Origin: Deltaproteobacteria bacterium
GTDB taxonomy: Bacteria; Desulfobacterota; Desulfobacteria; Desulfobacterales; Magnetomoraceae
Direction: 5' to 3'
DNA length: 19,865 nucleotides
Assembly: GCA_002753725.1 (NCBI GenBank)
Contig: PEAL01000065.1
Span: 1 to 19,865 of the forward strand
This document shows positions 973 to 16,616 of the stretch, piece by piece (within the stretch, counting starts at the first letter, position 1; every line of letters begins with the position of its first letter). The position numbers were made by a program, and so were the translations under genes. The notes under the pieces are model-generated. The model worked only from the letters and a program-made list of their open reading frames with translations. It was not told where the DNA came from and did no database searches.

Positions 973-1566
973 ATGAAAAACAATAATATGAAAGGTATTG
1001 TCAGATTTTTTAGGATGGGCGATATTGAGTCTCTCTTTTATTTTTATCTTTGCTTTGTGGGGCTGTCTGAAATTTTTATACTATGTTTCTTTAGAAAGTT
1101 ATCACATGTAACGCATTCGCCTTTTGATTTGAAAACCTGCTTTTTTGCATTGTTAATTGTTCCGCTACTTGAAACAATGGTCTTAGGCTTTATTACAGAA
1201 GCATTTAATATTATATTTTTAAAAAATGATGATTCAAAAAGTAACAAAACCTTCTGGTTTATCGACAGAAAGACCAAGGTTCCATTTATTTTTTCTCTTC
1301 TGTTGGTGATATTTGGTCTTTATAGCGTAATAAATATCGACAGGATATATTTATATTTTAATCAGCCTGAGATGCCTTTTTCAAAATTCATTTCTATTTT
1401 TTTGATTACCTTATTCGTGGGGATTTTTATTCTTTTTGTTTTGCAAGTGTTTTTATCCTATAAGCTCAAGCTAAAAATAATGACGCTTCAGTTATCGTTT
1501 GACCAGAAAAATTATTTATCTAAGCAATCAGAGCAATTGATTTCGTTGGACAACGATGATTCTTAG
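973..1566 (+). CDS. Hypothetical small integral membrane protein of 197 aa with 4 predicted TM helices. Tandem paralog of the previous gene.
   Basis: Starts 6 nt after the previous stop and has the same topology and conserved Pro/Glu TM2 motif. An alternative ATG lies at 988. Confidence 0.55.
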   Translation: MKNNNMKGIVRFFRMGDIESLFYFYLCFVGLSEIFILCFFRKLSHVTHSPFDLKTCFFALLIVPLLETMVLGFITEAFNIIFLKNDDSKSNKTFWFIDRKTKVPFIFSLLLVIFGLYSVINIDRIYLYFNQPEMPFSKFISIFLITLFVGIFILFVLQVFLSYKLKLKIMTLQLSFDQKNYLSKQSEQLISLDNDDS

Positions 1567-1604
1567 GAATGCTCGAAAAATAAGTTCTCCATTTTAGATT
1601 GGAG

Positions 1605-1626
1605 TCCCAAAGCTTTAGCTTTGGGA
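1605..1626. terminator. Hairpin tcccaaagc-ttta-gctttggga (9-bp stem) between convergent genes. Possibly a bidirectional terminator.
   Basis: Perfect inverted repeat read directly. A T-rich stretch (ttcttttat) follows on the plus side. It lies downstream of both the plus-strand gene ending at 1566 and the minus-strand gene ending at 1806. Confidence 0.35.
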
Positions 1627-1793
1627 GTTATTCTCAGGTTCTTTTATCGGATGCCAGAACAAGCAAGAGACCAATAATCGGTGTTAACAAAATGGATCCA
1701 AAAAAATATCCCCAAAAACCAAATTTTCGATTGGCTCCGAAAAGTCCAATGAACAAACAAATCATAAAATAGATTGCATAATGCATATGTGTT

Positions 1794-1814
1794 ATTCCTT
1801 ATTCCTTATTCCTT
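1794..1814. repeat. Three tandem copies of the 7-mer attcctt, overlapping the stop codon of the giant minus-strand gene.
   Basis: Read directly: attccttattccttattcctt. Confidence 0.4.
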
Positions 1815-2147
1815 ATAAAAAATGATGGCTTCGGCACGCCGATTTTTTAGTTTTCCTTCTGGCGTTACATTTTCTGTAATGGGGCGTGTCTCGCCATAAC
1901 CTTTAGATGTCAGTCGCTGGGATGATATGTTAAAGGTTTTAATCAGATATGTTCGGATATAATCCGCGCGTTGCTGTGAAAGCTCTACATTTTTATCTTC
2001 ATCGCCGGAATTATCTGTATGTGCTTCAATCGTCGCATAAACATCAGGATACTGATTTAATAATTTTCCCAGAGCATTGATACGAGCATGGCTGATGGGT
2101 TTAATGGCTGATGCATAAAAATGAACATTTAAATCATAATGAAGCGA
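1806..2147 (-). other. OmpA-like (OmpA_C / MotB-type) peptidoglycan-binding domain at the C-terminus of the giant protein.
   Basis: Motif string ...ATIEAHTDNSGDEDKNVELSQQRADYIRTYL...LTSKGYGETRPI...TPEGKLKNRRAEAII matches the conserved OmpA C-terminal domain signature (TD..G....N..LS..RA..V, GYGE, NRRVE). Confidence 0.8.
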
Positions 2148-5100
2148 TGTGTCTGATGTTGTCAGTTGTGCAAAGGCTGATTGAACAGGGGTTACATTAC
2201 CTGCCCGATCTCGTGCCTGGAGATGAATAAACCATCGGCCATCTTTTTGCGAGAGTGTCGTTTGGGTGATGGATTGAAAGTCACCCGATGGTATGGATGT
2301 CGGTTTTTGATCAATAACATATCGATAGTGAATGATTGGATCATTATCTTTCGCATGCCATGTCCATTGTTTTATTTTTTGAGGAATAATGTCATTAATC
2401 ATTGTATCAAAAACAGGAGGTGTATTATCCAATAATGCAGATACTGTATATACTTCACTGATATTCCCGGCCCTGTCCGTTGCCTGTACATGAATGTATC
2501 TTTTGCCATCACCCTCTGATATTTCAGCGGTATGATGGTCTTTAAAAGGCCCTGATGGCACTGAGATTTCCGATGAGTTGATGACCCATCGAAATGTGAC
2601 CTGTTGATCCATATCTGTAGCATTCCACGACCAGGTTTTCCTTTGTAAGGGTACAGGATCATCCTGAAGTCCATTAATCATCGGTTTTTGATTATCAATT
2701 ATTGCGGATACTGTTTTTACAGCACTGATATTTCCAGCGCGATCCTGTGCTTGTACATGAATATACCATCGCCCATTAACATCAGATAAGTGAGCCTGAA
2801 ATACAGGGCTAAAAACAGTTGATGGTGACGTTTCAGGTTTCTGATCAATATGATATCGGTACAAGATATTAGAATCAGCATCCCTGGCGGTCCATGACCA
2901 TTGAATCTGCTTTTGGGGAATCAAATGGTCTGCCAGACCTTCTATTTCCGGAGGAATCCTATCCAATATTGCGTAAACTGTTTTCGTGGCACTGACATTC
3001 CCAGCCCGGTCTTTGCCCTGGATATGAAAATACCAGACACCATTCGCATTGGAGAGGCCTGTTTCATTTGTGTGCGTAAAAGAACCTGTTGGCTCAGCAT
3101 CTGAGCGTTGATCAAGAAGCCATCGATAAGCAATCTGTTCATCATCATCGTTGGCGCGCCATTGCCATTGTTTGGATTGAACAGGTGTATCGTCATTTGA
3201 AAGGTGAGTGATTACGGGTGGTTTGTTATCTAACACACAATGGACAGTCAATACATTACTGATATTAAACGCCCTGTCTTGTGCCTGAACATGAAGATAA
3301 AACAAACCATTTTCATTTTCAAGCCGTGCTTGGGTTATTTGTGAGAATTGATTTTTCGGTACAGTGTAAGCATTTTGGTCAATGATATATCGATATTGAA
3401 TAAAGAGATCGTTATCTTTAGCGCTCCATTGCCATTGTTTGGATGTTGAAGGGGTGGTATCACTGGCAAGTTGTATTAGAATCGGTGGCTCATTATCCAA
3501 AATTGCTGAAACAGTTTTGACAGAACTTAGATTTCCTGCATAATCTTTCGCCTGAACATGTAAATACCATGTGCCATCTTTATCCGCGATGCGTGCCTTT
3601 GTGATATTTTTGAATAGGCCTGTTGGTATGGACTCAAAATTTTGATCAATAACATATCGATATCGAACATCAGTATGGGCATCATGGCTGTTCCAGTGCC
3701 ATTCTTTTTGTTGATGAGGAACTTTATCATCTTCCAGTCCAAAAATCTTTGGCGATTGATTATCCAATATGGCCACCGCTGTGGTAACCGGACTGATATT
3801 CCCTGCCTGATCTTTTGCCTGAATATGAATATACCATTTTCCATTGGATTGTTTCAACGTGGCTTGAGAGATATTCGTGTATTCTCCAGTTGGCACAGAA
3901 TCAGATGTCTGATCAATGGTATATCGATACAAGCATGACACTTCATTGGCAGCATCCCACGACCAGACCTTTTTTTGAACGGGAGTAAGATAATCAGTAA
4001 TGCCTGTGATTATGGGAGATGAACGATCGATGATTGCAGACACAGTCACGATATCACTCAAATTTCCAGCACGATCCCGTGCCTGTACATGGAGGTACCA
4101 CGTCCCTTCACCATTGGACAATTCACATGAATGATGATCGGTAAATGAGGTTGTTGGAATACCATTTGCCAATTGATCGACCTGATAGCGATATTGAGTA
4201 TATGAGTCATTATCCTCAACCTGCCATTGCCAATGGATGGTTTGTGCTGGTATTAAAACGTTATTCAAGCCGGTTATGACCGGAAGGGTAGTGTCTATCA
4301 CGATAGAAGCAGTGACAACATCACTGATATTATTCGCTGAGTCTCTGGCCTGTACATGAATAAACCAGAGCCCCTCCGTGTGGGACAGGCTCGCCTGGTT
4401 GATGGAATTAAACGAACCGGTTGGTTGTGATCGTTGTTTTTGATCAATGGAATATCGATAGTAAATGTTTGCATCAGTATCTTTGCCATACCATCTCCAA
4501 GTATGTGATTTCATAGGCTGATGAATATCTGAAAGCCCTGAAAGACTTGGGGCTGTACGATCAATAATGGCTGAAACGGTTTTGATGGGACTCAAATTAC
4601 CGGCGGTATCTTTAGCCTGTATGGATAAATAAAACACGCCTTCACCATCAGAAAAACTAACGGTATTGGTATAAGCAAACGTACCCGATGGTTTAATTTC
4701 AGGATGTTGTGTAATCACATAACGATACATCACATGAGGATCATCATCTCTTGCACGCCATGACCATTTTTTTTGCTGTGTTGGAATGGGATCAACGTTG
4801 ATATCCACTATTTCAGGGGCAATAGTATCCAGTCTGGCAGAGACAGTGACCACATTACTTACATTATCCGCCCTGTCCCTGGCCTGAACATGTAAATAGA
4901 ATATGCCATGATTATTGGAAATCTCTGCATATGTTATATCTGAAAAAGGACCAGAAGGTGTATATTGCTCAAAAGGGTTGATCGCATATCGATACATCAG
5001 TTCTGTATCCTGATCCTTTCCATGCCATATCCATTTTTTTTGGCTGACAGGGTTTATATCACTGGATAAGCCTTCAATGGTTGGAGGAATCGTATCAAAA

Positions 5101-8100
5101 TTTGCCCATACTGTTTGGGATGTGCTGATATTGCCAGCCCGGTCTTTTGACTGAACGTGAAGGAACCATCGGCCATTAATATTCTTTCCTGTAAAACAGG
5201 TCGTGGTATCAAAATCAGTTGAAAATTGTGCCTCGGAATGTTGAGTGAACGAATAACGCGATTTTACGCCGCTATCCTGATCAATTAATTGCCAGGCCCA
5301 TTGTTTGGACTGAACAGGATATGCAACAGAGGATAGCCCTTTTATTACAGGAGGAGTATTATCAAGAATACTTGACACTGTAACGATTTCACTGGTATTC
5401 CCAGCGCGATCCAGTGCCTGAACATGAATAAACCATGTCCCTTCAGCATTAGATAGATGAGCAGAGGTCACATGGGTAAAGGATGTTGTGGGGGATGCAT
5501 CGGCACGTTGATCGATAATATAGCGATGCAATACGTCTGGATCATTATCCAGGGTTGCCCATGTCCATGATTGATTCCTGACTGGATACAGATTATCTGT
5601 AAGTCCGATAATTTCAGGCGGGGTGTTGTCAATGATTGCAGAAACTGTGATGTGTTCACTAAGATTTCCTGCCTGATCTTTTGCCATAACATGCAAATAC
5701 CAGATGCCATCACCTTCTTCAATCGTGGCCTTGGCTTCTGGTTTGAATTGTCCAGATGGCGGTGCATCTTTATTTTGATCGATAGAAAATTGATAACTGA
5801 CGGTTTCATCCAAAGGTTCAGAATACCATGTCCATTTTTTCTGGTGTTTAGGTATAGAATCGTTTGAAAGCCCTTTAATGATTGGTGCTGTGTTATCCAA
5901 AATGGCTGAAACGCGAATTATTTCACTCAAATTGCCAGCACGGTCTTTTGCTTGAAGAAAAAGATAGCACATCTGATTTTCACCAGAGATTTCAACAGAT
6001 GTTTCATGCGTGTAAGAGCCGAACGGTTGTTTCTCAAGCGTTTTACTGATAGCATACCGATAGTCAAGGTATGGATCAGCATCATGGCCTTTCCATTGCC
6101 ATTTTTTTCTTTGTGTGGGAACGGGGTCATCATCTAACCCACTAATAACCGGGGCTGTGTTGTCCAGCAATTCAGAAACAGTGGCAACATTACTTTCATT
6201 TCCTGCGCGATCAATGGCCTGAACATGCAAATACCATCGGCCATCACCACTGGATATCGATGCCGTGTTCGTATATTGATAATTACCATCAGGTAAGGCG
6301 TTTTCATTTTGGGTGATTAAATACCGGTATACAATTTGGTGATCAGCGTCTTTTGCCTGCCAGTTCCATTTTATTTTTTTTACAGGATGCATTACAGGAG
6401 ATAATCCCGTGACTACCGGCTTTGTTGTATCGATGAGAGCTTTCACTGTAACCACAGAACTTAAATTGCCAGCAGTATCTTGTGCCTGTACATGGAGATA
6501 CCAAAGACCATCCGTTTCATAAATGGGTGTTGAATGAATCGTTGAAAAAATTCCCAATGGTTTGGAATCATAGAATTGATCAATTAAAATTCGAAAGCGA
6601 ACAGTGGGGTCAGCATCTTCTGCATGCCAAGAAAAAGATTTACTTCTTACCGGCGTTACTTCCCTGTCATCAGAAAGCCCCTTAATAACAGGCGGTAATT
6701 GATCCAACAGACAATATACATGATAAACCTTACTGAGATTGCCTGCCCAGTCTTTTGCCTGAACATGAAGATACCACCGCCCATCGACATCTTTAATTGT
6801 TGCGGTAGTTGTTTTTTTAAATTCTGTTTCAATGAGGGACTGTTCTTTCTGGTCAATGGTATACCGAAATGTCGCATTTTCATTTGAATGGGTTTTCCAG
6901 GCCCATATTTTCTGTTTTTTAGGAACGGAATCATTTTCAATACCCACAATTCTGGGAGGCACATTATCCAGAACCACAGAGACCGTGACAACATTGCTGA
7001 GATTTCCGGCGCGATCTGTTGCCTGAACATGGAGATAGCATAAGCCTTCAATATCTTTGGCAATCGCAGAATGTGTTGAATTAAACGGTCCTTCAGGTTT
7101 TGAATCAGGATGATGATCGATCAAATACCTGAAAAGAATAGTGGTATCATCATCCTTTGCTGACCATGTCCATCGTTTAACTGTTGTGGACGTTAATGAA
7201 TCAGACAGGCCGATAATTATTGGCGCTGTGGTATCAAGAATTGTCTGGACAGTGACAGTATTGCTTTCATTGCCTGCTGTATCGCATGCCTGAAGATGTA
7301 GATACCAGATACCATCATCATAATAATTTTTATCCAGTTGAATCATGCGGGTGAATGTATATGCACCTTTTGGATGAGAATCGGCAAACTGATCGACAAG
7401 ATATCGAAACCGAACATTGGGGTCAGCATCGTTTGCTGATAGCATCCATTTTTGTATGGACACTGGCGTAATCGAATGAGCAATATCATTAATGAGTGGT
7501 GGTATGGTGTCAATTGTAATGGATAACAACTCAGAAATACTGATATTTTCATCACTCTGGGTTTGATAATGTGCAGATAATTCATGTGTCCCTTCAGTCA
7601 AATCAATGTTAAACTGAAAAATATCTGCTGTGATGACTGTCGTTGCCCCTGATAAAGCATTTCCATCAACAAGAAGAACCACTGTCTGGTCGATATCTCC
7701 GAATCCTTGAATGTGTAAATTTTTAGATTGGCGGGTGATCCTATCGGTATTGAAAAAACCTGTATCATGTTCAGGTTCCAAGGATAGATTATATGGTTTT
7801 GGGTAGTGTGAATAAATGCCTTCTCCCCAGAAAATGTCAGCATGTTCTGTTTTATTCACCGCATTTTGTTTATTTCGAATATTGGTATACGCAATTGAAA
7901 TGGCATTGGAATCAGCATATTCAGACAAATAAATTTCATAGGGCATTTGTTCATTCCACAACGTTGCATGCGTCATAGTAAGAGAAGAATGATAAGCAAA
8001 AATGGCAGAGGAAACAGGGGCATCATTAACGGGGTGATTTTGGGTTAAAACCGTGCGAAATATATTTATCGTTGATTTTTGGGCGTAAATGGCTATTCCG

Positions 8101-8693
8101 GAAGTGGCTTTATTGTTCATCAATGTGACATTCGATAAGATCATATCTGAACCCTGACAATATATCCCTGCACCTGAACTGTTTGCTGTATTATGGACAA
8201 TGGCTGTTTGAGTGAGAGTCATGTTAGCGTACACGCAATATATACCACCGCCTTGTTCTGCGGTATTTTCTTTGATAATGACATTCACGAATTGAGGTGA
8301 TGCACCTCTGCAATAGACCCCTCCGCCGAGGTAAAAGGATTTTATGTCAGCTTTTCCATTGATGAGCGAAACATTACTGATGTGCGTTTTTTGATCCACA
8401 ATACCACCCAATGATTCATCAAAAAGCAACACACTTGAACGTTGGCAGCCATCAATGATTGTCTTGTTCTTGTCTTCACCAGACAGCTGAATGCCATTGA
8501 CTTTTGGCCATATAATATTTTCACGATAATTCCCATTTTTAATCAAAATGGTATCGTTGGATGTTGCAGAATTCAATGCTTGCTGGATGGTTTTAAAATC
8601 CGCTGGTACATGTAACATACGTGCATATGTGATTGAACATGCAAATAATAAAAAAAGAATACAAAATAAATATGGTTTAATGCTTGTTCTCAT
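1806..8693 (-). CDS. Giant cell-surface protein of about 2295 aa. It has a signal peptide, a right-handed parallel beta-helix domain, about 20 tandem Ig-like (beta-sandwich) repeats and a C-terminal OmpA-like peptidoglycan-binding domain. Adhesin-like.
   Basis: Continuous ORF 1806-8804. The start is assigned to the ATG at 8693, where the N-terminus MRTSIKPYLFCILFLLFACSITYA-RM is a classic Sec signal peptide. The upstream in-frame part overlaps the preceding gene. The C-terminus carries the OmpA/MotB-type motif HTDNSGDEDKNVELSQQRADYIRTYL...GYGETRP...EGKLKNRRAE. The N-terminal region has GGGVYC/GGGIYC/GAGIYC motifs typical of parallel beta-helix (PbH1) repeats. The middle carries about 20 repeats of consensus W.W...D.D....YRY.IDQ....P.G.F....A.I...DG.WYLHVQA.D.AGN.S.V.TVSAILDNTPP.I.GL. 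Confidence 0.85.
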   Translation of the reverse strand: MRTSIKPYLFCILFLLFACSITYARMLHVPADFKTIQQALNSATSNDTILIKNGNYRENIIWPKVNGIQLSGEDKNKTIIDGCQRSSVLLFDESLGGIVDQKTHISNVSLINGKADIKSFYLGGGVYCRGASPQFVNVIIKENTAEQGGGIYCVYANMTLTQTAIVHNTANSSGAGIYCQGSDMILSNVTLMNNKATSGIAIYAQKSTINIFRTVLTQNHPVNDAPVSSAIFAYHSSLTMTHATLWNEQMPYEIYLSEYADSNAISIAYTNIRNKQNAVNKTEHADIFWGEGIYSHYPKPYNLSLEPEHDTGFFNTDRITRQSKNLHIQGFGDIDQTVVLLVDGNALSGATTVITADIFQFNIDLTEGTHELSAHYQTQSDENISISELLSITIDTIPPLINDIAHSITPVSIQKWMLSANDADPNVRFRYLVDQFADSHPKGAYTFTRMIQLDKNYYDDGIWYLHLQACDTAGNESNTVTVQTILDTTAPIIIGLSDSLTSTTVKRWTWSAKDDDTTILFRYLIDHHPDSKPEGPFNSTHSAIAKDIEGLCYLHVQATDRAGNLSNVVTVSVVLDNVPPRIVGIENDSVPKKQKIWAWKTHSNENATFRYTIDQKEQSLIETEFKKTTTATIKDVDGRWYLHVQAKDWAGNLSKVYHVYCLLDQLPPVIKGLSDDREVTPVRSKSFSWHAEDADPTVRFRILIDQFYDSKPLGIFSTIHSTPIYETDGLWYLHVQAQDTAGNLSSVVTVKALIDTTKPVVTGLSPVMHPVKKIKWNWQAKDADHQIVYRYLITQNENALPDGNYQYTNTASISSGDGRWYLHVQAIDRAGNESNVATVSELLDNTAPVISGLDDDPVPTQRKKWQWKGHDADPYLDYRYAISKTLEKQPFGSYTHETSVEISGENQMCYLFLQAKDRAGNLSEIIRVSAILDNTAPIIKGLSNDSIPKHQKKWTWYSEPLDETVSYQFSIDQNKDAPPSGQFKPEAKATIEEGDGIWYLHVMAKDQAGNLSEHITVSAIIDNTPPEIIGLTDNLYPVRNQSWTWATLDNDPDVLHRYIIDQRADASPTTSFTHVTSAHLSNAEGTWFIHVQALDRAGNTSEIVTVSSILDNTPPVIKGLSSVAYPVQSKQWAWQLIDQDSGVKSRYSFTQHSEAQFSTDFDTTTCFTGKNINGRWFLHVQSKDRAGNISTSQTVWANFDTIPPTIEGLSSDINPVSQKKWIWHGKDQDTELMYRYAINPFEQYTPSGPFSDITYAEISNNHGIFYLHVQARDRADNVSNVVTVSARLDTIAPEIVDINVDPIPTQQKKWSWRARDDDPHVMYRYVITQHPEIKPSGTFAYTNTVSFSDGEGVFYLSIQAKDTAGNLSPIKTVSAIIDRTAPSLSGLSDIHQPMKSHTWRWYGKDTDANIYYRYSIDQKQRSQPTGSFNSINQASLSHTEGLWFIHVQARDSANNISDVVTASIVIDTTLPVITGLNNVLIPAQTIHWQWQVEDNDSYTQYRYQVDQLANGIPTTSFTDHHSCELSNGEGTWYLHVQARDRAGNLSDIVTVSAIIDRSSPIITGITDYLTPVQKKVWSWDAANEVSCLYRYTIDQTSDSVPTGEYTNISQATLKQSNGKWYIHIQAKDQAGNISPVTTAVAILDNQSPKIFGLEDDKVPHQQKEWHWNSHDAHTDVRYRYVIDQNFESIPTGLFKNITKARIADKDGTWYLHVQAKDYAGNLSSVKTVSAILDNEPPILIQLASDTTPSTSKQWQWSAKDNDLFIQYRYIIDQNAYTVPKNQFSQITQARLENENGLFYLHVQAQDRAFNISNVLTVHCVLDNKPPVITHLSNDDTPVQSKQWQWRANDDDEQIAYRWLLDQRSDAEPTGSFTHTNETGLSNANGVWYFHIQGKDRAGNVSATKTVYAILDRIPPEIEGLADHLIPQKQIQWSWTARDADSNILYRYHIDQKPETSPSTVFSPVFQAHLSDVNGRWYIHVQAQDRAGNISAVKTVSAIIDNQKPMINGLQDDPVPLQRKTWSWNATDMDQQVTFRWVINSSEISVPSGPFKDHHTAEISEGDGKRYIHVQATDRAGNISEVYTVSALLDNTPPVFDTMINDIIPQKIKQWTWHAKDNDPIIHYRYVIDQKPTSIPSGDFQSITQTTLSQKDGRWFIHLQARDRAGNVTPVQSAFAQLTTSDTSLHYDLNVHFYASAIKPISHARINALGKLLNQYPDVYATIEAHTDNSGDEDKNVELSQQRADYIRTYLIKTFNISSQRLTSKGYGETRPITENVTPEGKLKNRRAEAIIFYKE
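2190..7505 (-). repeat. Tandem array of about 20 diverged ~265-bp repeats, each encoding an ~88-aa Ig-like domain with a YLHVQA.D.AGN.S motif.
   Basis: The motif WYLHVQA[KRQT]D[RQT]AGN[LI]S recurs about every 88 residues in the translation. The DNA shows recurring blocks such as ccattgccattgtttgga and cctgaacatg(a/t)a(g/a)ataccat at the same period. Confidence 0.8.
7604..8612 (-). other. Right-handed parallel beta-helix (pectate-lyase-fold, PbH1-repeat) domain in the N-terminal part of the giant protein.
   Basis: Consecutive short repeats with hydrophobic/Gly ladders: GGGVYCRGASPQFVNVII, GGGIYCVYANMTLTQTAIVHN, GAGIYCQGSDMILSNVTLMNN, SGIAIYAQKSTINIFRTVLTQN. Confidence 0.6.
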
Positions 8694-8704
8694 GTTCTGT
8701 CCAT

Positions 8705-10858
8705 TTAATTGACGACAATCGAATAAAAATAATAAAAATAACCTGCTATCATAAAAAGAGATAAAAAAAGTCCTGTACATTTTACTCTTGGTATTGCCTG
8801 ACAAAAGCCTTTTCGATTCAAGCCGGCAATAATAAGTGTCAACACAAATGAAAGGCCTGTCATAAGGTAAAGAAGAATAAACCAGTGATCAAATGGGATA
8901 AGATAATCAACAGATATTTCAGACAGGAAGTAATATAAGAACGATACCACTCCCAGGCATGACAGATGGGCAAACATCGCAATCAGTGTATGGGAAGGAA
9001 TGATGAATAAAAGGCAGGATAAAAGACCCATAATAATGCATCCAGGAACAAAACATCGCAACCACTGATGAAAAGAATCTCGATGAATAAGGATTTGAAT
9101 TCTATAATCCGGGTTATGTTCTTGATTAAATTGCGAATAATCAACCTTAGGTTGCGTTGTCATGCCATAAGCATAGCAGCGATTCAGTTTCCAGTTGGAA
9201 AGGTTAAATCGATCATTGTCATTGAGACTGATTTCTTTGTTAATATATCTCATTTCATTACTTTTTAATGTATTATGATAAAAATGAATACCTAACTTTT
9301 GTTTATCAAAAGGGTATGTATGGTACAAAAAATTTATCTTAAAGGATCCCTTAATGCTGTATTTTTTATACAAGACACCATCAAGGGTTCCACTTTCAAC
9401 AGGATCGTCTAAAACAACAGGTGTTGTTGCATTTAAAAAGCAAATATCTGCGGGGTCGATTACCGGGGTGTCATACAAGAATGTCAGAAAAAAATGAGCC
9501 GTAAAGAACGATTCTTTTATATCCAGTTCAACGATTTCAGTTTTTACCTGAACAATCGATACGTGTTGAATATCTGATTCATAAGGATTTGTATGGTTTA
9601 ATTTAGATTTCATGTCCATCAGAAACTGTTGGTGAAAAGGAACAAGTACCCCTTTTTGATAGTGACCCAGACCTGTATTTTTTATTGCATTTCCATTATC
9701 ATCAAAAAAGATATCACCGCAGATTCCTTTAAAAGCATAATCAGGTTTCTTTATATCGGTAAGAAAATTTTTTATTTGACGTCTGTACTGGTAAGATCGT
9801 GCAGTGGGGTCAATTTCCATTTTTCTAAGAATATCTGCCATCAGAAGTGTGGCATCATAATAATTTGTTGCAATAGACGATGGAACGTTACGATATTTTT
9901 CATAATAGGCCTTAAAAAAGTCTACAGATTGAGAATTAAACAAATAATTCGCAAAGATATCATTTGCAGTTGTGAAAACACCATCTGAATAATAACCAGG
10001 AATTGATTTTTCCAGGGCAATTGTTCGTAATTCGTTTTGAAACGATTCATATGAAAATACATGACCATTGGTTATAAAAAAGTGAGGATCAAAAGCGTTT
10101 AATTTTTCAATAATCTGAACAGCCAGGCGATCAGATGTTGCAATAAAAACAGAGCTTTTTGCTTTAGATGTTTTAAACATTCTAACGATGGTTTGCAGTT
10201 GTGGATAAATATTTTTTTCTTCATCAATATCAATTGTATTTTCAATTTTAATGCCGTTATTTTTGAAAAAATTCATATATGTATTTTTGATATCACGACT
10301 ATAAATATCTTTAGATGCAATAATGGTTACAGGTGACCATTTACAATACTGCTTTGAAAACATAGCCAGAAATGTTGCCTGATGGAGAGAGGATGGTATG
10401 GATCGAAAATACCATTCATTGTTTAATGTAACATTCGTTGCTGGTGCTGAGGCGGTAATCGCGGGGATACCTTCTTTTAAATAAACCTGCCCGGCAGAAA
10501 AACTGGCAGCGCTGCTATAATGCCCAATAACAAAAAGCAGATGGTCATTTCTTGAGAATGAATTGGCAACTTTCATGGCAAGATTGGTTTTATTCATGTC
10601 ATCTTTATAGATATATTTCAATTTTTTACCATCAATACCGCCATTTGCATTGATTTTTTCTATACATAAATCAATACCCCGAAGCATTTCTTTGCCATAT
10701 TCTTCATCCGCCCCACTGAATGGGCCTGCAACACCAAACAGGCACACATCTTGATCACTGTGATAGATATCAAATACACTCAATAGTAGTAGTATACCGA
10801 TAAACAGTATCACAATTAAAATAATCAATAGGCCTTTATTTAAAATGAATTGTTTCAT
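8705..10858 (-). CDS. Fusion protein of 717 aa. An N-terminal type I periplasmic binding domain (Leu/Ile/Val-binding, LIVBP/ANF-receptor-like) is joined to a pentameric ligand-gated ion channel core (extracellular beta-sandwich plus 4-TM pore domain).
   Basis: N-terminal TM/signal segment, then the LIVBP-like signature GPFSGADEEYGKEMLRGIDLCIEKINANGGIDGKKLKYIYKDD...LLFVIGHYSSAAS...AITASA. Residues about 432-595 match the pLGIC extracellular-domain pattern: beta1 VSIVQVKTEIVELDIKESFFTAHFFLTFLYDTP, then the Pro-loop hallmark YPFDKQKL (codons 9316-9305), then a pre-M1 Arg in IQILIHRDS. M1 with its conserved Pro follows (WLRCFVPGCIIMGLLSCLLFIIP), then three more TM helices with a short M3-M4 loop, as in prokaryotic GLIC/ELIC-type channels. 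Confidence 0.8.
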   Translation of the reverse strand: MKQFILNKGLLIILIVILFIGILLLLSVFDIYHSDQDVCLFGVAGPFSGADEEYGKEMLRGIDLCIEKINANGGIDGKKLKYIYKDDMNKTNLAMKVANSFSRNDHLLFVIGHYSSAASFSAGQVYLKEGIPAITASAPATNVTLNNEWYFRSIPSSLHQATFLAMFSKQYCKWSPVTIIASKDIYSRDIKNTYMNFFKNNGIKIENTIDIDEEKNIYPQLQTIVRMFKTSKAKSSVFIATSDRLAVQIIEKLNAFDPHFFITNGHVFSYESFQNELRTIALEKSIPGYYSDGVFTTANDIFANYLFNSQSVDFFKAYYEKYRNVPSSIATNYYDATLLMADILRKMEIDPTARSYQYRRQIKNFLTDIKKPDYAFKGICGDIFFDDNGNAIKNTGLGHYQKGVLVPFHQQFLMDMKSKLNHTNPYESDIQHVSIVQVKTEIVELDIKESFFTAHFFLTFLYDTPVIDPADICFLNATTPVVLDDPVESGTLDGVLYKKYSIKGSFKINFLYHTYPFDKQKLGIHFYHNTLKSNEMRYINKEISLNDNDRFNLSNWKLNRCYAYGMTTQPKVDYSQFNQEHNPDYRIQILIHRDSFHQWLRCFVPGCIIMGLLSCLLFIIPSHTLIAMFAHLSCLGVVSFLYYFLSEISVDYLIPFDHWFILLYLMTGLSFVLTLIIAGLNRKGFCQAIPRVKCTGLFLSLFMIAGYFYYFYSIVVN

Positions 10859-10889: not shown

Positions 10890-13037
10890 TTAAAGCGGAA
10901 AACAACAGTTGACCACATAAAAAGATATCATCATTATCGTAATCAAACATGCTGCCTTTCCCAAAAATTGAACGAACGCCATTGATTGCTTATAATGATG
11001 GATCGATAAGCCTATCAGTCCCATTTGAAACATGATTGTCAACCCAATAAAACCATACAAACACATAAACAGCATTTCAGAGAATGTCAGAAATGGTATG
11101 TGTAATTTGAAATATAAATGGCATACAGTAGTGATCATCAGGAATATGATATTGATCACCAATGAAATTTTTATTCGATGCACAGGACAAAAATAACTGA
11201 TCGATGTCAGTAGAAAAAGAATAAGACAGGCAATAAAAATAAGCTTTTCCTGCTGATTCAGGCGCCTTTGAATATGAATATCAACAGCGAATTCAGATGC
11301 GTTATTCTTAATATCTCCTGACAATGGGCTTTTTATTAAATAAGGCATCGCGTCCACAGATAGCCATGTTTCAGAATTCAATTTAAAACTTATTTTATTT
11401 AGCTGATCAATAGCAAATATAAACGTGTTTGTGTTTACGCTTGTATCCCGAAAACTTATGGTCAGTTTTTGGCTGTCTATGGGATATCGTTTAAGGTCAA
11501 AGTGATGATAAAATACACTATCCACGGTGTATAACAGATGTGTGGTACCTTGTTTATTCATAGTTTTTTTAGGATTTTTCAATACAAGCGGAGAAACAGC
11601 GTTGGTAAATTGAATCCATTCAGGTTGAAAATGCTTTTGAAAACTAAACCAGAGATTAAACCGGGCATGAAATGTACCATCTATCGTATTGATTTGATTT
11701 AATTGAATATCATCTATCCTTACATACACTAATTGTTTTTTGATAAAATAATCATCATTGTTTGCCATAACGTCATTATCTAATGCTTTTTGAATCAAAT
11801 CATTGGAAATATCATTGAGTGAAACAGCGATGTATTGATGAAAGGCGGGAATATAATGGCCCTTGTATAATTGAGTGACAATCATTGACTTTTTCGTTTC
11901 GCCAACACCATTAAAAAATATTTTTCCGGTTAAGCCCTCCACACAGTGATTCCTATCATAGAATGTTTCAAGTGCATTTTTGAATTTTTTTCTGATGTCC
12001 CGGATAGCCCCCTGTATCTCAATTTTTCTTAATGCTTCAATGCTAACATGTGCCAGATCATAAGATGTCGTACTGATTAATGAAGGCGGTACTCCATAAA
12101 AGGTATAATAATTCTTTTCAAAAATTCTATTGATTTGTTTTGAAAAATACTGAGAAAACAACGATACAGAGTAGATACCATTTGAATAAAAACCGGGTGA
12201 GGATTGTTCTTTGGGATACGCTTTGAATCCATCGATAAAAATTTGAGATGCCAAGGAATCTGCGCCCATAATGATTTGATTCAGTTGCTTCTTTTTCAAA
12301 CCAACCACCAATTTTACAGACGTATCAGCGTGGGTTGCCAAAAAAAACATATCAGGTTTTAACGCATGCGTATCAATGGCCTGTACAATAGTATCAACCT
12401 GATCATCCATACTCGTTGAACTCGAATCCAATGGATATTGTTCAACAATCTCAATTCCTTTTTCCAGTGCTTGTTCTGTAAATACTGCTGCTAAATTTTT
12501 ACCATATGCCCCTGTATCATAAACAATCGTTGCGGTTTTAAGATTCAATGCTGATTGTGCGTAAGCAGCAAGAAAATCACTTTGACAGGAATTTGGTGGG
12601 ACAATTCTGAACAACCATTCATTCATAATCGGCAAGTCATCAGATGTTGCTGAACCGGTTATTGATGGAATCATGTTGTTTTCATAAATAGAGGCAGCCG
12701 CAGTGCAGCAGGAACTGAAATAATGTCCCAGAACAAAAAGAATGTCCTTGTTTCGAACAATTTGTTTTGCTGCACCGACAGCGCCTTCTTCGGTGCCTTT
12801 ATCGTCAAAAACAAGCAGCTTGATCTGGCTGCCATGAAGTCCTCCTGAGGCGTTTATTTGATCAATATAGAATTGTACCCCTTTAACCATTTCATTTCCA
12901 TAAAAAGACTGGGAACCACTGAATGTACTCGCAACCGCAATATAAAGCGTTTTCTTGCCATAATACAAATGAATCGTATAAAATATGGAAATCAACATGC
13001 TTATCAGTAAAATTATAATAATATATTTTTTCATCAT
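10890..13037 (-). CDS. Paralogous LIVBP-like periplasmic binding domain / pentameric ligand-gated ion channel fusion, 716 aa.
   Basis: Start assigned to the ATG at 13037 (MMKKYIIIILLISMLISIFY...), 2 nt after the upstream stop. The longer ORF to 13094 would overlap the upstream gene. LIVBP signature TFSGSQSFYGNEMVKGVQFYIDQINASGGLHGSQIKLLVFDD...ILFVLGHYFSS...SITGSA. pLGIC hallmarks: VYVRIDDIQLNQINTIDGTFHARFNLWFSF, Pro-loop YPIDSQKL (11486-11475), pre-M1 IHIQRR, M1 LIFIACLILFLLTSISYFCP, and three more TM helices at the C-terminus. Confidence 0.75.
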   Translation of the reverse strand: MMKKYIIIILLISMLISIFYTIHLYYGKKTLYIAVASTFSGSQSFYGNEMVKGVQFYIDQINASGGLHGSQIKLLVFDDKGTEEGAVGAAKQIVRNKDILFVLGHYFSSCCTAAASIYENNMIPSITGSATSDDLPIMNEWLFRIVPPNSCQSDFLAAYAQSALNLKTATIVYDTGAYGKNLAAVFTEQALEKGIEIVEQYPLDSSSTSMDDQVDTIVQAIDTHALKPDMFFLATHADTSVKLVVGLKKKQLNQIIMGADSLASQIFIDGFKAYPKEQSSPGFYSNGIYSVSLFSQYFSKQINRIFEKNYYTFYGVPPSLISTTSYDLAHVSIEALRKIEIQGAIRDIRKKFKNALETFYDRNHCVEGLTGKIFFNGVGETKKSMIVTQLYKGHYIPAFHQYIAVSLNDISNDLIQKALDNDVMANNDDYFIKKQLVYVRIDDIQLNQINTIDGTFHARFNLWFSFQKHFQPEWIQFTNAVSPLVLKNPKKTMNKQGTTHLLYTVDSVFYHHFDLKRYPIDSQKLTISFRDTSVNTNTFIFAIDQLNKISFKLNSETWLSVDAMPYLIKSPLSGDIKNNASEFAVDIHIQRRLNQQEKLIFIACLILFLLTSISYFCPVHRIKISLVINIIFLMITTVCHLYFKLHIPFLTFSEMLFMCLYGFIGLTIMFQMGLIGLSIHHYKQSMAFVQFLGKAACLITIMMISFYVVNCCFPL

Positions 13038-13039
13038 AT

Positions 13040-15721
13040 TTAATTCAGTTGCCAATCTTTGATATTCTGTCCACCAAGAGCCATATGAGACCAATTTTTA
13101 ATGCGTGGTTTTATAAGGTAATGGTCGGTTTCATAGAAAATGGGGATTACAAGCGTCTCTCTTTGGGTCAGAATCTCATCGATCATTAAATAATAGTCTT
13201 TTCTTAAATGTAAATTTTTTTCTTTTATGGCTTTATTCAACACATCAGATAATTCTGTATTGATATAACTGTTCTGGCGGCTAAGCTTGTTATATGAATC
13301 AAACAAAAAACTATTGGCATCAGGAAAAGTCGCATACCAGTCAGAAATGAAAATATGAGCCTGTCTGGGATTGTATGAACCAGGTTCTGTAAGACCGATG
13401 ACAGTGGATTGAAGATTCAATCTTTTTTTAAGTAGTAATGAAATCGCTTTGGCAATTTGTTTATGGGAATCATGGATTCCTGAATCAATTAGAATTGCAG
13501 GGCATCCTTTTCCGCCAGGATAGCCCGCTTCGGCTAACATTTTCATGGCATGAGTGGGATGGTAAACAGGCCGTTTCTCCTGACTTGACAGCAATAATAA
13601 ATCAGGGGGTATAAACATTTTCATTGCCTTTTGTTGCCCATGAATGACGAACCTGGTAATAAATGAGCGATCAATAACAGACGCAATGGCTTTTCGTAAC
13701 AAAACATTATCCACAGGGGATTGATTCACATTGAAAAAAAGGCCGGTTGTAGAAAAATTGGTACGTTCTTGATAGTCATGTCGGGTTTCAGGTTGCTTTT
13801 TGACCGAATCAAGAAAACGCGATGGGATGTTTATAAAAGCCCCCCCAAGAATATCCAGTTGATTGTTTTGATACATATGCAAAGCAAGCAGGCTGTTCAT
13901 GATAACGTTATAACGCACTTCCTGAATGGCAACAGTTGAAGCATCATAATAGCGGTCATTTTTTCGTAAAATAATCAAAGAGCCTTTTTCATGACAAGCC
14001 AGTTGAAAGGGACCATTACTGACAATATGTTCAGGGGCTGTCCATTCAGCAGCCCATTTTTGAATCGTTGCCGAAGGCAGAGGGCTGAAAACAGGCAGTC
14101 CGGTGATTGAAGGAAAAAATGCAGCAGGATAGGACAGGATAAAATCAATGGTATAATCATCAATAACGTTGACCCCCAGTTTTGATGCATCTTTGATGAA
14201 TCCTAGATGAATGTCCTGGGCATTTTTGAGTATGAATAAGTGTTTTACATCCGGGCATTGGGTTTCAGGGGTCAAATTTCTAACTATTGCAAATCTCAGA
14301 TCGTGAGCTGTCACCGGCTGTCCGTTTGTCCAGAACACATTTTTTCGCAATTTAAACCGGTAACGATCTAAGGTTTCATTCGGTTCCCAACTCGTGGCAA
14401 AGTCCGGGGAAGACTGATAGGTGTCAGGATGGTATTGAGTCAGGCGTATAAACAATTGCTTTGATAATTCAGTTGTTATTTTATCATGGGCAAGCCCCGG
14501 GTCTAATCGTGAAACATCATTGTTACAAAACCTGTTTATATTGAAAGAATCGACCAGGTCAAAAAAATCATCCTGCTTTTTTTCTTTTCGATTAATAATG
14601 ACAAATTTTCCATCTTCATATTTTTTAAAAAATAAAGCGGATGGCCCGATATTTCCTTGTCGTGTCAGATGATATTGACTTAAAACACCATCCCAATGTT
14701 CCATGAATCTAAGAGTTGTATTTAAAACCATTGGTAAACATGAATTACTTTTTTCCATTGACGTTTTAAGCAAATGAATCAGATCATAACCCCGGGCAGC
14801 AAATGTTTCAGGCTCAACGCCAAAGGCTTGCGTAAAACTGGAAACAAAATCTTGTGTTAATTTTCTGGGAAGTGTGTTGTCAAAGTTGCTTGGGATGATG
14901 GTTCCTTCAGCTTTTTTTCCAGTATTACTCCAAAAATAGCGTGTGTCAATTTCATCGGTGGCCATAATTGGGGTATTGATATTCAACTCTCTCATCTGAT
15001 TTACCACCAATGCTGCGATGTTATCTCTGCATAATAATAAAACAATGTCAAAGGATTCATTTTTTAAATCACTTAAGATATCTCTGAAATTTGTTTCAGA
15101 TCGAGAAAAGGATTGTTGAGATACAATCGCAAGGCCTTTTTGTGTGGCCTCTTCATAAAAAATATCAGCAAGAATCTTACTGGTTTTCTGGCGGTCATTA
15201 AGGATAATAATGCGCTGATAGTGGTTTTGAGAGAAACATTCAGCAATTCTTCTAACATATACTTGATCTGGCATATAATTATTAAAAATATAGGCCCCGC
15301 CATAGCGTAATAAATCCGCCCCTGTAGAAAAAAATAATATGCCAGCTTCTTTGTATACGATTGATGCAGAAATAGCATTTTGAGGACTAAAATGTCCGAT
15401 AACAGCAAAAACATTTTTATTTTTAGCTAATTTTTCTGCAATGCGAATGGATGTTTTTTCATCATCATAATCATAAAACAAAAGCGGTCTGATCCTTTTC
15501 CCCATAACGCCGCCATCGCTGTTTATTTCATCCATAGCCAGTTTAACGCCATGAGCAAACTGTGTGGTAGCAGGGAATGCGTCCACAATTCCAATGAAAA
15601 GATCATCGGTTGATCGGGTCAAATGCTTCATGCGCTCTTCATTGGAAATAACCTTGTTACATGAAAAAAATGTAAGAAGGAGTACAATAAAAGCAAAATG
15701 TAAAACGATGATTGGTTTCAT
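13040..15721 (-). CDS. Predicted lipoprotein of 893 aa made of two complete solute-binding domains. Residues about 38-375 are type I (LIVBP-like). Residues about 395-893 are solute-binding protein family 5 (OppA/DppA/NikA-like peptide or nickel-binding type).
   Basis: Signal peptide with a Cys at residue 21 (LLLTFFSC, a non-canonical lipobox). LIVBP signature IGIVDAFPATTQFAHGVKLAMDEINSDGGVMGKRIRPLLFYDYDD...VFAVIGHFSPQ...FFSTGA. The second half begins LDPGLAHDKITTELSKQLFIRLTQYHPDTYQSSPDFATSWEPNETLDRYRFKLRKNVFWTNGQPVTAHDLRFAI. That matches the conserved N-terminal block of family-5 SBPs (LDPA.A.D..S...L.......G.I.P.LA.SWE.S.DG..Y.F.LRKGV.FHDG.P.TA.DV.FS) and continues to the end of the protein. 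Confidence 0.8.
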   Translation of the reverse strand: MKPIIVLHFAFIVLLLTFFSCNKVISNEERMKHLTRSTDDLFIGIVDAFPATTQFAHGVKLAMDEINSDGGVMGKRIRPLLFYDYDDEKTSIRIAEKLAKNKNVFAVIGHFSPQNAISASIVYKEAGILFFSTGADLLRYGGAYIFNNYMPDQVYVRRIAECFSQNHYQRIIILNDRQKTSKILADIFYEEATQKGLAIVSQQSFSRSETNFRDILSDLKNESFDIVLLLCRDNIAALVVNQMRELNINTPIMATDEIDTRYFWSNTGKKAEGTIIPSNFDNTLPRKLTQDFVSSFTQAFGVEPETFAARGYDLIHLLKTSMEKSNSCLPMVLNTTLRFMEHWDGVLSQYHLTRQGNIGPSALFFKKYEDGKFVIINRKEKKQDDFFDLVDSFNINRFCNNDVSRLDPGLAHDKITTELSKQLFIRLTQYHPDTYQSSPDFATSWEPNETLDRYRFKLRKNVFWTNGQPVTAHDLRFAIVRNLTPETQCPDVKHLFILKNAQDIHLGFIKDASKLGVNVIDDYTIDFILSYPAAFFPSITGLPVFSPLPSATIQKWAAEWTAPEHIVSNGPFQLACHEKGSLIILRKNDRYYDASTVAIQEVRYNVIMNSLLALHMYQNNQLDILGGAFINIPSRFLDSVKKQPETRHDYQERTNFSTTGLFFNVNQSPVDNVLLRKAIASVIDRSFITRFVIHGQQKAMKMFIPPDLLLLSSQEKRPVYHPTHAMKMLAEAGYPGGKGCPAILIDSGIHDSHKQIAKAISLLLKKRLNLQSTVIGLTEPGSYNPRQAHIFISDWYATFPDANSFLFDSYNKLSRQNSYINTELSDVLNKAIKEKNLHLRKDYYLMIDEILTQRETLVIPIFYETDHYLIKPRIKNWSHMALGGQNIKDWQLN

Positions 15722-15746: not shown

Positions 15747-16616
15747 TTAATTTTTATCACCATTTGTTTCTGTATTCAGAATTAAAGGCAATCCATTCTT
15801 GCCACTGCCAATAATAATAATTTTTGAATTTTGTGATTCTGCAAGTTTTTCAGTGGCTTTAATCCCTTGCCAATTGAGATATTGTTCTTTATTGAAAAGG
15901 GATGATGCAATGGTGTTCAAATGATCTCGGATACCTTCTGCTTCAATTCTTTTTCGGGTTGCTTCTTTTTTTTCTCGCTCAATAACATAAGTATGGGCTT
16001 CCGCCAGATGTTTTTGTTTGATTTTATTACGAATGGATTCGGCCACTTCTTCAGGAAGTATGATCCCCCGAACAAGAACATCATCAATATTGATATAGCG
16101 TTGAGCGACCTGTTCTATGGCTTTATTGATAGCCTCCACAATTAATTTTCTTCCCGTGGTGTAAACTTCTTCAGCATTCAATGTACCAATAATTTCACGA
16201 ATAACAGCTTCTATTTCAGGAATAATCACCTTATCCGCATACTCCATTCCCACTTGCTGATGTAATACACCAAGAAGTTTATATTCAGGCGCATAGCGAA
16301 TAGAGAGTTTAATATGAACTTGCAAACCATTTTTAGTGAGGACATCCATTTCCGGTTTAATTTCCTGGATACGAACATTATAGACGTACATTTTATCCCA
16401 GGGAAGAATTAAGTGAAGACCTTCTGAATAAACAGAAAGGATATCTGTTCCACCAAAAAAACGACTCCAAAACACCGCTGCTTCACCTGGATAAATATTG
16501 TATACAATCATATTAAACAGGAAAGCAAAGGTCAATAAAGCAATCAAAATGGTCAGAATGAGAGAAAAGGTATAATTTTTTAATTTGATAAAAAAGTTCT
16601 TGAACCTGTTTTTCAT
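15747..16616 (-). CDS. SPFH/band-7 (stomatin/prohibitin/HflC-like) membrane-scaffold protein, about 290 aa.
   Basis: N-terminal single TM segment (FSLILTILIALLTFAFLF) followed by the SPFH core YPGEAAVFWSRFFGGTDILSVYSEGLHLILPWDKMYVYNVRIQE...DVLTKNGLQVHIKLSIRY and a C-terminal coiled-coil-like KQKHLAEAHTYVIEREKKEATRKRIEAEGIRD. Start taken at the ATG at 16616 (MKNRFKNFF...). The ORF is open up to 16697. Confidence 0.8.
   Translation of the reverse strand: MKNRFKNFFIKLKNYTFSLILTILIALLTFAFLFNMIVYNIYPGEAAVFWSRFFGGTDILSVYSEGLHLILPWDKMYVYNVRIQEIKPEMDVLTKNGLQVHIKLSIRYAPEYKLLGVLHQQVGMEYADKVIIPEIEAVIREIIGTLNAEEVYTTGRKLIVEAINKAIEQVAQRYINIDDVLVRGIILPEEVAESIRNKIKQKHLAEAHTYVIEREKKEATRKRIEAEGIRDHLNTIASSLFNKEQYLNWQGIKATEKLAESQNSKIIIIGSGKNGLPLILNTETNGDKN

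Follow-up and report, generated by a model that had tools for sequence, protein, structure and literature searches.

SiiE and the adhesins of the LapA/MpIBP type are long rods of many tandem bacterial Ig-like (BIg) domains, and the chlamydial Pmp and Vag8 passengers have a Sec signal at the N-terminus and, after it, a right-handed beta-helix bearing Pmp repeats of the GGA(I/L/V) type. In MotB, the OmpA-like domain serves to fasten an ion-channel complex to the wall and, to our knowledge, known OmpA-like domains come after a membrane barrel, a lipid anchor or a transmembrane helix. In Salmonella, the giant SiiE is co-encoded with an ion-conducting membrane complex (SiiAB), a peptidoglycan-binding OmpA-like domain being involved, and SiiA is MotB-like (bioRxiv 10.1101/641415). 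Leptospira OmpL47, a 39-kDa protein with a few domains, is surface-exposed (PMC2698987), and DeCLIC is a pentameric ligand-gated channel (pLGIC) with an added N-terminal periplasmic domain made of jelly-roll lobes (PMC9897478).

The window (the whole stretch of 19,865 nucleotides analysed) derives from the metagenome-assembled genome (MAG) of a Candidatus Magnetomorum, a multicellular magnetotactic bacterium, and contains a single intact giant gene (1806-8693, minus strand), under purifying selection, whose 2295-aa product is arranged as signal peptide, Pmp-type beta-helix, Big_13 domain, 20 tandem units and OmpA-like peptidoglycan-binding tail. The features of the gene and its neighbours are as follows:

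1634-1786, minus strand: gene for a 50-aa two-helix membrane protein that closes the cassette (called in all three loci checked)
1806-2153, minus strand: C-terminal OmpA-like peptidoglycan-binding domain plus stop codon (aa 2181-2295)
2154-7493, minus strand: 20 tandem beta-sandwich units of 88-91 aa, 267-bp period
6696-6962, minus strand: unit 3, a chimera from an in-register three-unit deletion (DNA identity switch, unit mapping)
7506-7790, minus strand: Big_13 Ig-like domain joining the head to the repeat array (aa 302-396)
7809-8621, minus strand: right-handed parallel beta-helix head with Pmp-type GGxIY/N repeats (aa ~25-295)
8622-8693, minus strand: predicted type I signal peptide, aa 1-24, MRTSIKPYLFCILFLLFACSITYA, cut before R (sequence, family N-termini)
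8705-10858, minus strand: PBP-pLGIC fusion, operon partner (Pfam PBP match, sequence, profile versus PDB)
10890-13037, minus strand: second PBP-pLGIC fusion, 715 aa, operon partner (PBP, sequence, profile; gene call)
13040-15721, minus strand: 893-aa double solute-binding protein, operon partner (Peripla_BP_6 and SBP_bac_5)
15747-16616, minus strand: SPFH/Band_7 membrane scaffold protein, 289 aa, operon partner (PF01145, E 6.5e-25; gene call)

Unlike the giant adhesins of type I secretion (T1SS), the protein has neither RTX repeats (RTX profiles gave no match, which sets it apart from the RTX adhesins) nor a C-terminal T1SS signal, and its cassette holds no ABC/MFP/OMP genes; instead, it has a Sec signal peptide for export and a beta-helix as its head, and the OmpA-like domain is fused to the giant protein itself. 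The co-encoded channels are pentameric ligand-gated rather than MotAB-like as in SiiAB. In contrast to Pmp and Vag8, there is no C-terminal translocator beta-barrel, and the protein ends in a soluble OmpA-like domain after 21 Ig-like domains; autotransporter profiles found no match, nor the 12-stranded C-terminal barrel of type V secretion. Intimin D00-D0 is resembled by the Ig pair alone, and the inverse autotransporter plan of intimin and invasin is not seen, as no LysM or barrel matched and the protein begins with a signal peptide and then a beta-helix. With scores summed over the protein, the units match the OmpL47-type/chitobiase-C-like model NF047446, and they have its aromatic-x-x-x-D-x-AGN strand motif, whereas the OmpL47 equivalog NF047441 scores 114.5 bits against a required 250, and OmpL47 has no beta-helix or OmpA tail. 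Over their whole length, the last 110 residues of the protein can be aligned with OprF, A. baumannii OmpA/Omp38, Pal, MotB and MotY, the binding residues being conserved; however, the domain here terminates a 2180-residue soluble rod. As in DeCLIC, the two upstream genes encode a pLGIC extracellular domain with pro-loop, four transmembrane helices and an added N-terminal periplasmic domain, but this added domain has a type I periplasmic-binding-protein fold (Peripla_BP_6), and the genes lie within a cassette that also encodes an SPFH protein and a giant wall-anchored protein.

Domain architecture of the giant protein

The protein is predicted to be exported through its Sec type I signal, a region modelled as a helix over residues 2-22. 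A lipoprotein was also considered, since 'LLFAC' fits a permissive lipobox; the Cys of 'LFAC' is missing in all relatives, and the motif was thus rejected as a lipobox. The head was recognized both by Pmp (GGA[ILV]/FxxN-type) repeat profiles above cut-off and by its beta-helix fold. Behind it, Big_13 (PF19077, 31.7 bits against a cut-off of 27, searched with the N-terminal fragment) is modelled as a beta-sandwich and brings the beta-sandwich domains to 21 in all, together with the 20 units.

The tail was matched by PF00691 (62.2 bits against 27.2, E 6e-17, aa 2195-2285) and aligned over its full length with the OprF C-domain (5u1h, E 6e-21) and A. baumannii Omp38 (3td3). It keeps the pattern HTDxxG...LSxxRA, reading IEAHTDNSG...LSQQRA where 3td3 has IEGHTDNTG...LSLARA, and the predicted binding residues are conserved in the complete relatives (P0002, P0004-P0009, P0061 and P0062); P0003, whose sequence ends before the C-terminus, was left out of this comparison. 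In the A. baumannii OmpA structure, the conserved Asp and Arg contact the diaminopimelate of the peptide stem. By this likeness, the tail would hold the C-terminus of the protein non-covalently on peptidoglycan.

Profile and fold evidence (PF00691, PF19077 and the Pmp-type repeat models all above their cut-offs) thus bears out the initial annotation, which had proposed a signal peptide, a beta-helix tip, an Ig-like stalk of about 20 repeats and an OmpA anchor; the units counted are exactly 20, of 88-91 aa. Its dismissal of the many antisense ORFs across the gene also stands, these being chance ORFs, although the repeat periodicity invoked as their cause is unnecessary as an explanation.

An old, stable repeat array

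The units follow the consensus P.I.GL..D..P...K.W.W.A.D.D....YRY.IDQ.....P.G.F.....A..S...G.WYLHVQAKDRAGN.S.V.TVSAILDN, and the AF2 model of the tandem unit (pLDDT 94), for which the first alignment left out three rows, had FnIII and BIg domains as structural matches, the BIg domains of SiiE among the best. The NCBIfam OmpL47-type domain NF047446 reached 194.7 bits against 40 when summed over the whole protein; no lone unit passes, and two units give 26 bits. A periodicity of about 265 bp, noted earlier, was recovered as a 267-bp period (z=24). The units are, however, far from each other, sharing 41% identity in protein and ~52% in DNA (DNA range 44-62%), and a unit resembles its neighbours no more than it does units farther off. 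TRF detected nothing on the array because the units are too diverged.

Between relatives, the window units are positional orthologues (dS about 1, dN/dS 0.17), with no concerted evolution, and a single indel event separates the window copy from its relative over that divergence. The array is stable, and its units are ancient, diverged Ig/FnIII-like domains. The one event removed three ancestral units in register and left unit 3 as a chimera, with 70-87% DNA identity to unit 3 of P0002 up to the motif and ~77% to unit 6 of P0002 afterwards; the crossover lies inside the WYLHVQAKD codons, at about window positions 6750-6776. Across the family, unit counts are 6, 8, 15, 20, 23 or at least 26, and unit number changes solely by rare in-register block deletions or duplications with junctions within the conserved WYLHVQA motif. 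Chimeric junctions of older unit losses were sought in the 15-unit lineage and not found, because, outside the closest pair, the C-part that would tell the units apart is too short and too strongly conserved.

The differing unit numbers, and a chimeric unit at the very place where a collapse would produce it, are what could be expected of a fast contraction/expansion (contingency-type) locus or of a collapsed or misassembled repeat region, and the initial annotation had indeed called the array a contraction/expansion and assembly-collapse hotspot. We consider this extremely unlikely. Contingency repeats are recognized by near-identical tandem DNA units, long exact words or recent homogenisation, none of which was found here: sibling units are at most 58% identical in every family member, and the 'long identical words' assumed for the units reach 23 nt, which equals the expectation from codon-shuffled controls, with no excess. 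Units this divergent are kept apart by short-read k-mers, contrary to the suggestion that such assemblies are error-prone, and should seldom undergo RecA-type events or slippage. Moreover, units 3 and 6 of P0002 share words of only 5-6 nt at the junction, too short for k-mer collapse, the reading frame is intact, and the other 20 units run collinearly in an independent assembly. Recombinational change of unit number, as earlier suggested, did occur in the family and in this copy, but a frequent change is contradicted by the single indel at dS about 1. This locus is, consequently, a counter-example, showing that a long and plainly periodic array is not necessarily prone to mutation or misassembly; hazardous and harmless arrays can be told apart quickly by unit divergence, by the length of shared words relative to a codon-shuffle control, and by positional orthology.

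A conserved channel cassette

Six loci share a cassette, conserved down to 34% identity, in which the giant gene comes last among the large genes. The cassette comprises SPFH/Band_7, a double solute-binding protein, one or two PBP/pLGIC fusions and the giant protein; the gene for the 50-aa membrane protein belongs to it as well at the three loci checked (the window, L002 and L003 from HK-1), with 88-90% identity. Both fusions carry the pro-loop (F/Y)P(F)DxQ of pLGICs (here YPFDKQ and YPIDSQ) and four hydrophobic helices, and by profile versus PDB they match GLIC, ELIC, sTeLIC and DeCLIC (E 3e-13 to 1e-8). Single-sequence searches with the channel module remained sub-significant, and a six-sequence profile was needed; this profile matches 230 pLGIC sequences (best E 2.7e-13). 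Pfam Neur_chan models found no match in either fusion, and such PBP/pLGIC fusions go unseen in standard Pfam annotation. The double solute-binding protein has an N-terminal signal and a possible lipobox, and every cassette partner faces the periplasm or the inner membrane. A Slam-like TPR+SlipAM gene (18214-19716) was dropped as a partner, being missing from the conserved neighbourhood of the other loci.

The complete architecture was found in a few clusters only, all labelled members of which are Candidatus Magnetomorum. Three loci from other taxa (L006, L008 and L011) were rejected as relatives, since they are unrelated mosaics with only Big_13/unit-like domains in common. A species-level genome scan returned no full-architecture member, the two named source genomes not being among its matches, and a broad literature search found nothing specific.

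Tether, adhesin or enzyme

The most likely reading, to which we give about an even chance, is that the giant protein is a peptidoglycan-anchored tether with a glycan-binding head that acts with the channel cassette, its location and function being deduced from the domains and gene neighbourhood. In such a model, the 21 beta-sandwich domains would form a semi-rigid rod of roughly 70-80 nm, fixed to the wall by the tail, and the beta-helix head would bind glycan without cleaving it; the protein would serve as a wall-anchored envelope tether or spacer, linked physically or functionally to the co-encoded channel/SPFH complex, and the head may stay within the envelope or reach the cell surface. That the stalk projects from the cell wall, as annotated initially, was an assumption; the protein lacks any module for crossing the outer membrane or being anchored in it, and the partners face the periplasm or inner membrane.

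The main competing explanation, which appears possible though clearly less probable, is a surface adhesin whose OmpA domain sits in the wall, whose Ig rod crosses or passes the outer membrane and whose beta-helix tip binds matrix polysaccharide or a neighbour cell, adding to the cohesion of the consortium, with channel genes that are functionally unrelated or loosely related. Nevertheless, profile searches and family N-termini gave no outer-membrane barrel and no T1SS/RTX, T5SS, T9SS, PEP-CTERM or lipobox signal, only ~15 residues separate the last unit from the OmpA-like domain, and the orientation of the partners also argues against it, as does the conservation of the cassette to such low identity, unexplained if the genes were unrelated. 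An enzymatic head has also to be weighed, in which the beta-helix would work on exopolysaccharide or capsule as a lyase, epimerase or hydrolase while the Ig rod sets its distance from the wall. This seems unlikely: identity between the head and polysaccharide-active enzymes is 8-16%, family-invariant head residues are mainly Gly, Asn and Ile ladder positions, and the five invariant charged residues, with a single invariant Asp, do not resemble GH28- or PL1-type sites. Furthermore, repeats with a Pmp-type signature are usually found in passengers that bind. As the head has no conserved cluster of acidic catalytic residues, its role is probably glycan binding rather than cleavage.

Beyond the tether itself, the cassette may be a tethered envelope signalling device, with a ~75-nm rod held by peptidoglycan at one end and carrying a glycan-binding head at the other, coupled to two ligand-gated channels and an SPFH scaffold; its parts resemble those of tethered animal mechanosensory complexes (channel, stomatin and extracellular tether). 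That it is a device of this kind, peculiar to multicellular magnetotactic bacteria, is a long shot. If true, it would turn mechanical strain, or ligands derived from the matrix or neighbours in the shared envelope space, into ion fluxes that would help coordinate the cells of the consortium. Multicellular magnetotactic bacteria have been described as the sole known bacteria without a unicellular stage, and which genes underlie their cohesion and the coordination between cells is not known (PMC11239054, PMC12954391). In this context, the module, kept over deep divergence, supplies specific candidate genes for how these organisms build their envelope or pass signals.

The giant protein and its repeat array

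One very long minus-strand ORF spans 1806..8804 when counted from the first TTG. Translation from the ATG at 8693, the start chosen in the public gene call, yields a product of 2295 aa; the preceding gene stops 11 nt upstream, at 8705. In this product the following regions were delimited:

aa 302-396: Big_13 domain (profile search)
aa 401-2180 (window 2154-7493, minus strand): unit array (motif anchoring)
aa 2195-2285: OmpA domain (profile search, E 6e-17)

The array comprises exactly 20 units, 88-91 aa apart as anchored by the motif [LIFY][HSF][LIV][QM][ASG].D, with a DNA period of 267 bp. The in-register match fraction was 0.482 at lag 267, against 0.269 ± 0.009 at other in-frame lags (z = 24.5), falling off slowly across multiples of 267, and a repeat search of the window recovered families with up to 17 copies spaced at such multiples; therefore, the periodicity is real and far above chance. 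The initial annotation's description of a giant protein with about 20 repeats, a beta-helix, Ig-like units and an OmpA anchor was essentially correct, and models for OmpA, Big_13 and the Pmp repeats matched.

The head is a Pmp-type beta-helix, the N-terminal 300 residues exceeding the curated cut-offs of both Chlam_PMP and POMP_repeat, and the protein is exported by Sec. Summed over the units, the NCBIfam 'OmpL47-type' domain model scored 194.7 bits. Furthermore, the beta-sandwich array consists of 21 domains in a structure model of high confidence across the linker, and the OmpA-like tail aligns end to end with the C-domains of OprF and A. baumannii OmpA, with the HTD...RA residues kept.

Divergence of the units and changes in their number

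In pairwise comparison, units were 41% identical in protein (29-53%) and 52% in DNA (44-62%), with no closer similarity between neighbours (41 and 52%) than between distant units. The longest exact word common to two units was 23 nt, with one occurrence, and synonymous-codon shuffles gave 17.9 ± 2.2 with a maximum of 23; therefore, no DNA similarity exists beyond the demands of the protein motif, and the claim that the units share long identical words fails. TRF reported no 267-bp array. Alternate-frame ORFs within the gene (38 stretches of ≥50 aa, maximum 154) matched codon-order shuffles (34.9 ± 4.2 stretches; 95th percentile of the maximum, 187), so that antisense ORFs were rightly dismissed as not genuine, but they are chance ORFs for which the repeat periodicity need not be invoked.

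The closest relative, P0002 (69% identical, 23 units), comes from an independent metagenome assembly. Window units pair one-to-one with P0002 units at 57-80% identity (most 70-80%), against ~41% to sibling units, and are ancient positional orthologues without concerted evolution. Between the two genes dS was about 0.9-1.1, with dN/dS of 0.19 for the head, 0.17 for the units and 0.10 for the tail.

Structurally, the window protein departs from P0002 only in lacking counterparts of P0002 units 4-6. Window unit 3 is a chimera, resembling P0002 unit 3 (70-87% in DNA) up to the WYLHVQA codons and P0002 unit 6 (~77%) thereafter, with the crossover at about window 6750-6776; the comparison was also made at the protein level. 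Since P0003 and P0004, which are more distantly related, possess counterparts of P0002 units 4 and 5, the three-unit difference is a deletion in the lineage of the window. At the junction the parental units have only 5-6-nt words in common, which is far too short for k-mer assembly collapse, and the reading frame is preserved.

Arrays of 6, 8, 15, 20, 23 and at least 26 units occur in the family. In the metagenome protein P0062 (1289 aa), a block of three units was duplicated long ago (units 4/7 58% and units 3/6 46% identical) and one unit is disrupted and contains an insertion; the family therefore undergoes expansions as well as deletions. Thus, the headline of the initial annotation, a contraction/expansion hotspot and assembly-collapse hazard, is unsupported by units that are diverged, orthologous by position and, in every family member compared, without siblings more than 58% identical; we consider this reading very improbable. 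Judging from these sequences, repeat number is evolvable via in-register events in the conserved motif, over times comparable to those of species divergence, and the array is neither a contingency locus nor an assembly hazard.

The channel cassette and its distribution

Upstream and on the same strand lie four genes, encoding a Band_7/SPFH protein, a double solute-binding protein and two proteins of ~715 aa. Features around the giant gene were:

18214-19716, plus: TPR protein with a C-terminal SlipAM (surface lipoprotein assembly modifier, Slam-like) barrel, 500 aa
13040-15721, minus: double solute-binding protein, 893 aa, with Peripla_BP_6 and SBP_bac_5/OppA-like folds
10890-13037, minus: binding-domain/pLGIC fusion, ~715 aa (six-sequence profile)
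8705-10858, minus: another such fusion, ~715 aa (same profile)
1792-1816: 3.6 perfect tandem copies of the heptamer TTATTCC (plus strand; coding strand, GGAATAA)
1634-1786, minus: ORF for a 50-aa two-helix membrane protein, just downstream of the giant gene
1605-1626: 9-bp GC-containing hairpin, TCCCAAAGC-TTTA-GCTTTGGGA, just after the 50-aa ORF

Pfam labels both ~715-aa proteins solely as periplasmic binding proteins, and its Neur_chan models miss them. Their C-terminal 310 residues comprise a beta-rich part, which carries a YPFDKQ or YPIDSQ motif, and then four hydrophobic helices. A single-sequence search of this module gave weak matches (E about 0.05), which were exclusively ELIC and nicotinic receptors, and a profile of six copies matched 230 pentameric ligand-gated ion channel sequences (best E 2.7e-13), including GLIC, ELIC, sTeLIC and DeCLIC. 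Motif, helices and profile matches together identify both genes as coding for binding-domain/pLGIC fusions. Extra N-terminal domains are already known among prokaryotic pLGICs (PMC9897478); we found no literature linking Magnetomorum to ligand-gated channels. Neither the permease nor the ATPase of an ABC transporter is encoded in the cassette. The signal peptide of the 893-aa protein ends in a possible lipobox (LTFFSC).

The cassette was found in the window, at loci L002 and L021, and at L003 and L022 of Ca. Magnetomorum HK-1, the last channel gene overlapping the start of the giant gene in three of these five. At the locus of P0061, a relative with 6 units and only 34% identity, the same partners occur in a different order, and their fusion protein scores 98% probability against the channel profile. 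At L021, a HepT-like toxin gene (133 aa, 6026-6427) sits between the two channel-fusion genes. The paralogue P0009 (20 units) is outside the cassette; at L004 it directly follows a 1243-aa DUF748 protein (1332-5063). The TPR-SlipAM gene was rejected as a cassette member, being absent from the conserved neighbourhood at other loci.

The 50-aa ORF is 88-90% identical across three loci, far better conserved than the giant protein, and matches no family (DUF1269, E 0.11). The heptamer repeat begins within the final codons and the stop of the giant gene and continues into the spacer; its first copy supplies that stop, its last may serve as ribosome-binding site of the 50-aa ORF, and a change in copy number would leave the giant protein unaltered. 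The hairpin may terminate the cassette, although the coding strand shows no clear T-run there.

An identical protein is encoded on NCBI contig JADFYV010000091.1 (assembly GCA_015232875.1; 'MAG: OmpA family protein [Candidatus Magnetomorum sp.]'). When 5.8 billion proteins were searched through a word index, broad coverage was limited to nine sequences, two from HK-1 and the others from unlabelled metagenomes. An exhaustive HMMER search with aa 1-489 against 1.84 billion cluster representatives recovered the complete head, Big_13 and unit region in no clusters other than those of the query, P0004, P0009, P0061 and P0062, and the beta-helix head alone was widespread (41,137 matches). No protein of the full architecture turned up when species-level genomes were scanned, and partial matches were rejected as differently built mosaics. 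The giant protein appears confined to multicellular magnetotactic bacteria. In the HK-1 assembly the entire cassette is present as two diverged copies (L003, JPDT01000241.1; L022, JPDT01001924.1), one giant protein having 15 units and the other at least 26 (a contig end interrupts it), which could be true paralogues or two genotypes of the amplified consortium.

Possible role and relation to known systems

An Ig-like domain measures roughly 3.5-4 nm, by which the array would form a rod of about 70-80 nm; the OmpA-like tail would fix the C-terminus to peptidoglycan, and the head may bind a glycan. Of the head residues invariant in the family, most occupy Gly/Asn/Ile ladder positions and just five are charged, which favors glycan binding over catalysis and makes a tethered polysaccharide enzyme unlikely. 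A surface cell-cell adhesin is a better candidate, still well short of an even chance: the rod exceeds the width of the periplasm, and structural and sequence relatives of the protein are extracellular, but profile searches recognized no outer-membrane translocation or anchoring module, and the cassette partners all face the periplasm or inner membrane. For these last two reasons, and because an apparent lipobox Cys in the signal peptide was rejected as not conserved in relatives, we prefer a tether or spacer that is anchored in the wall and cooperates with the channel/SPFH cassette, a reading to which we give about an even chance.

In its way of working the protein is likened to giant Ig-rod adhesins, the nearest parallel being the Salmonella SiiE system, in which a giant Ig-repeat protein is coupled to an ion-conducting complex with an OmpA-like wall-binding domain (bioRxiv 10.1101/641415). 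Membership of the SiiE family is excluded, as RTX repeats, a T1SS signal and T1SS genes are lacking; without a barrel, the protein is neither an autotransporter nor an inverse autotransporter, and it does not match the OmpL47 equivalog model. Head, unit and tail domain types are known singly; their combination, restricted distribution and channel cassette are not described. In brief, this locus is of interest because it appears confined to multicellular magnetotactic bacteria and because its pairing with ligand-gated channel fusions is conserved.
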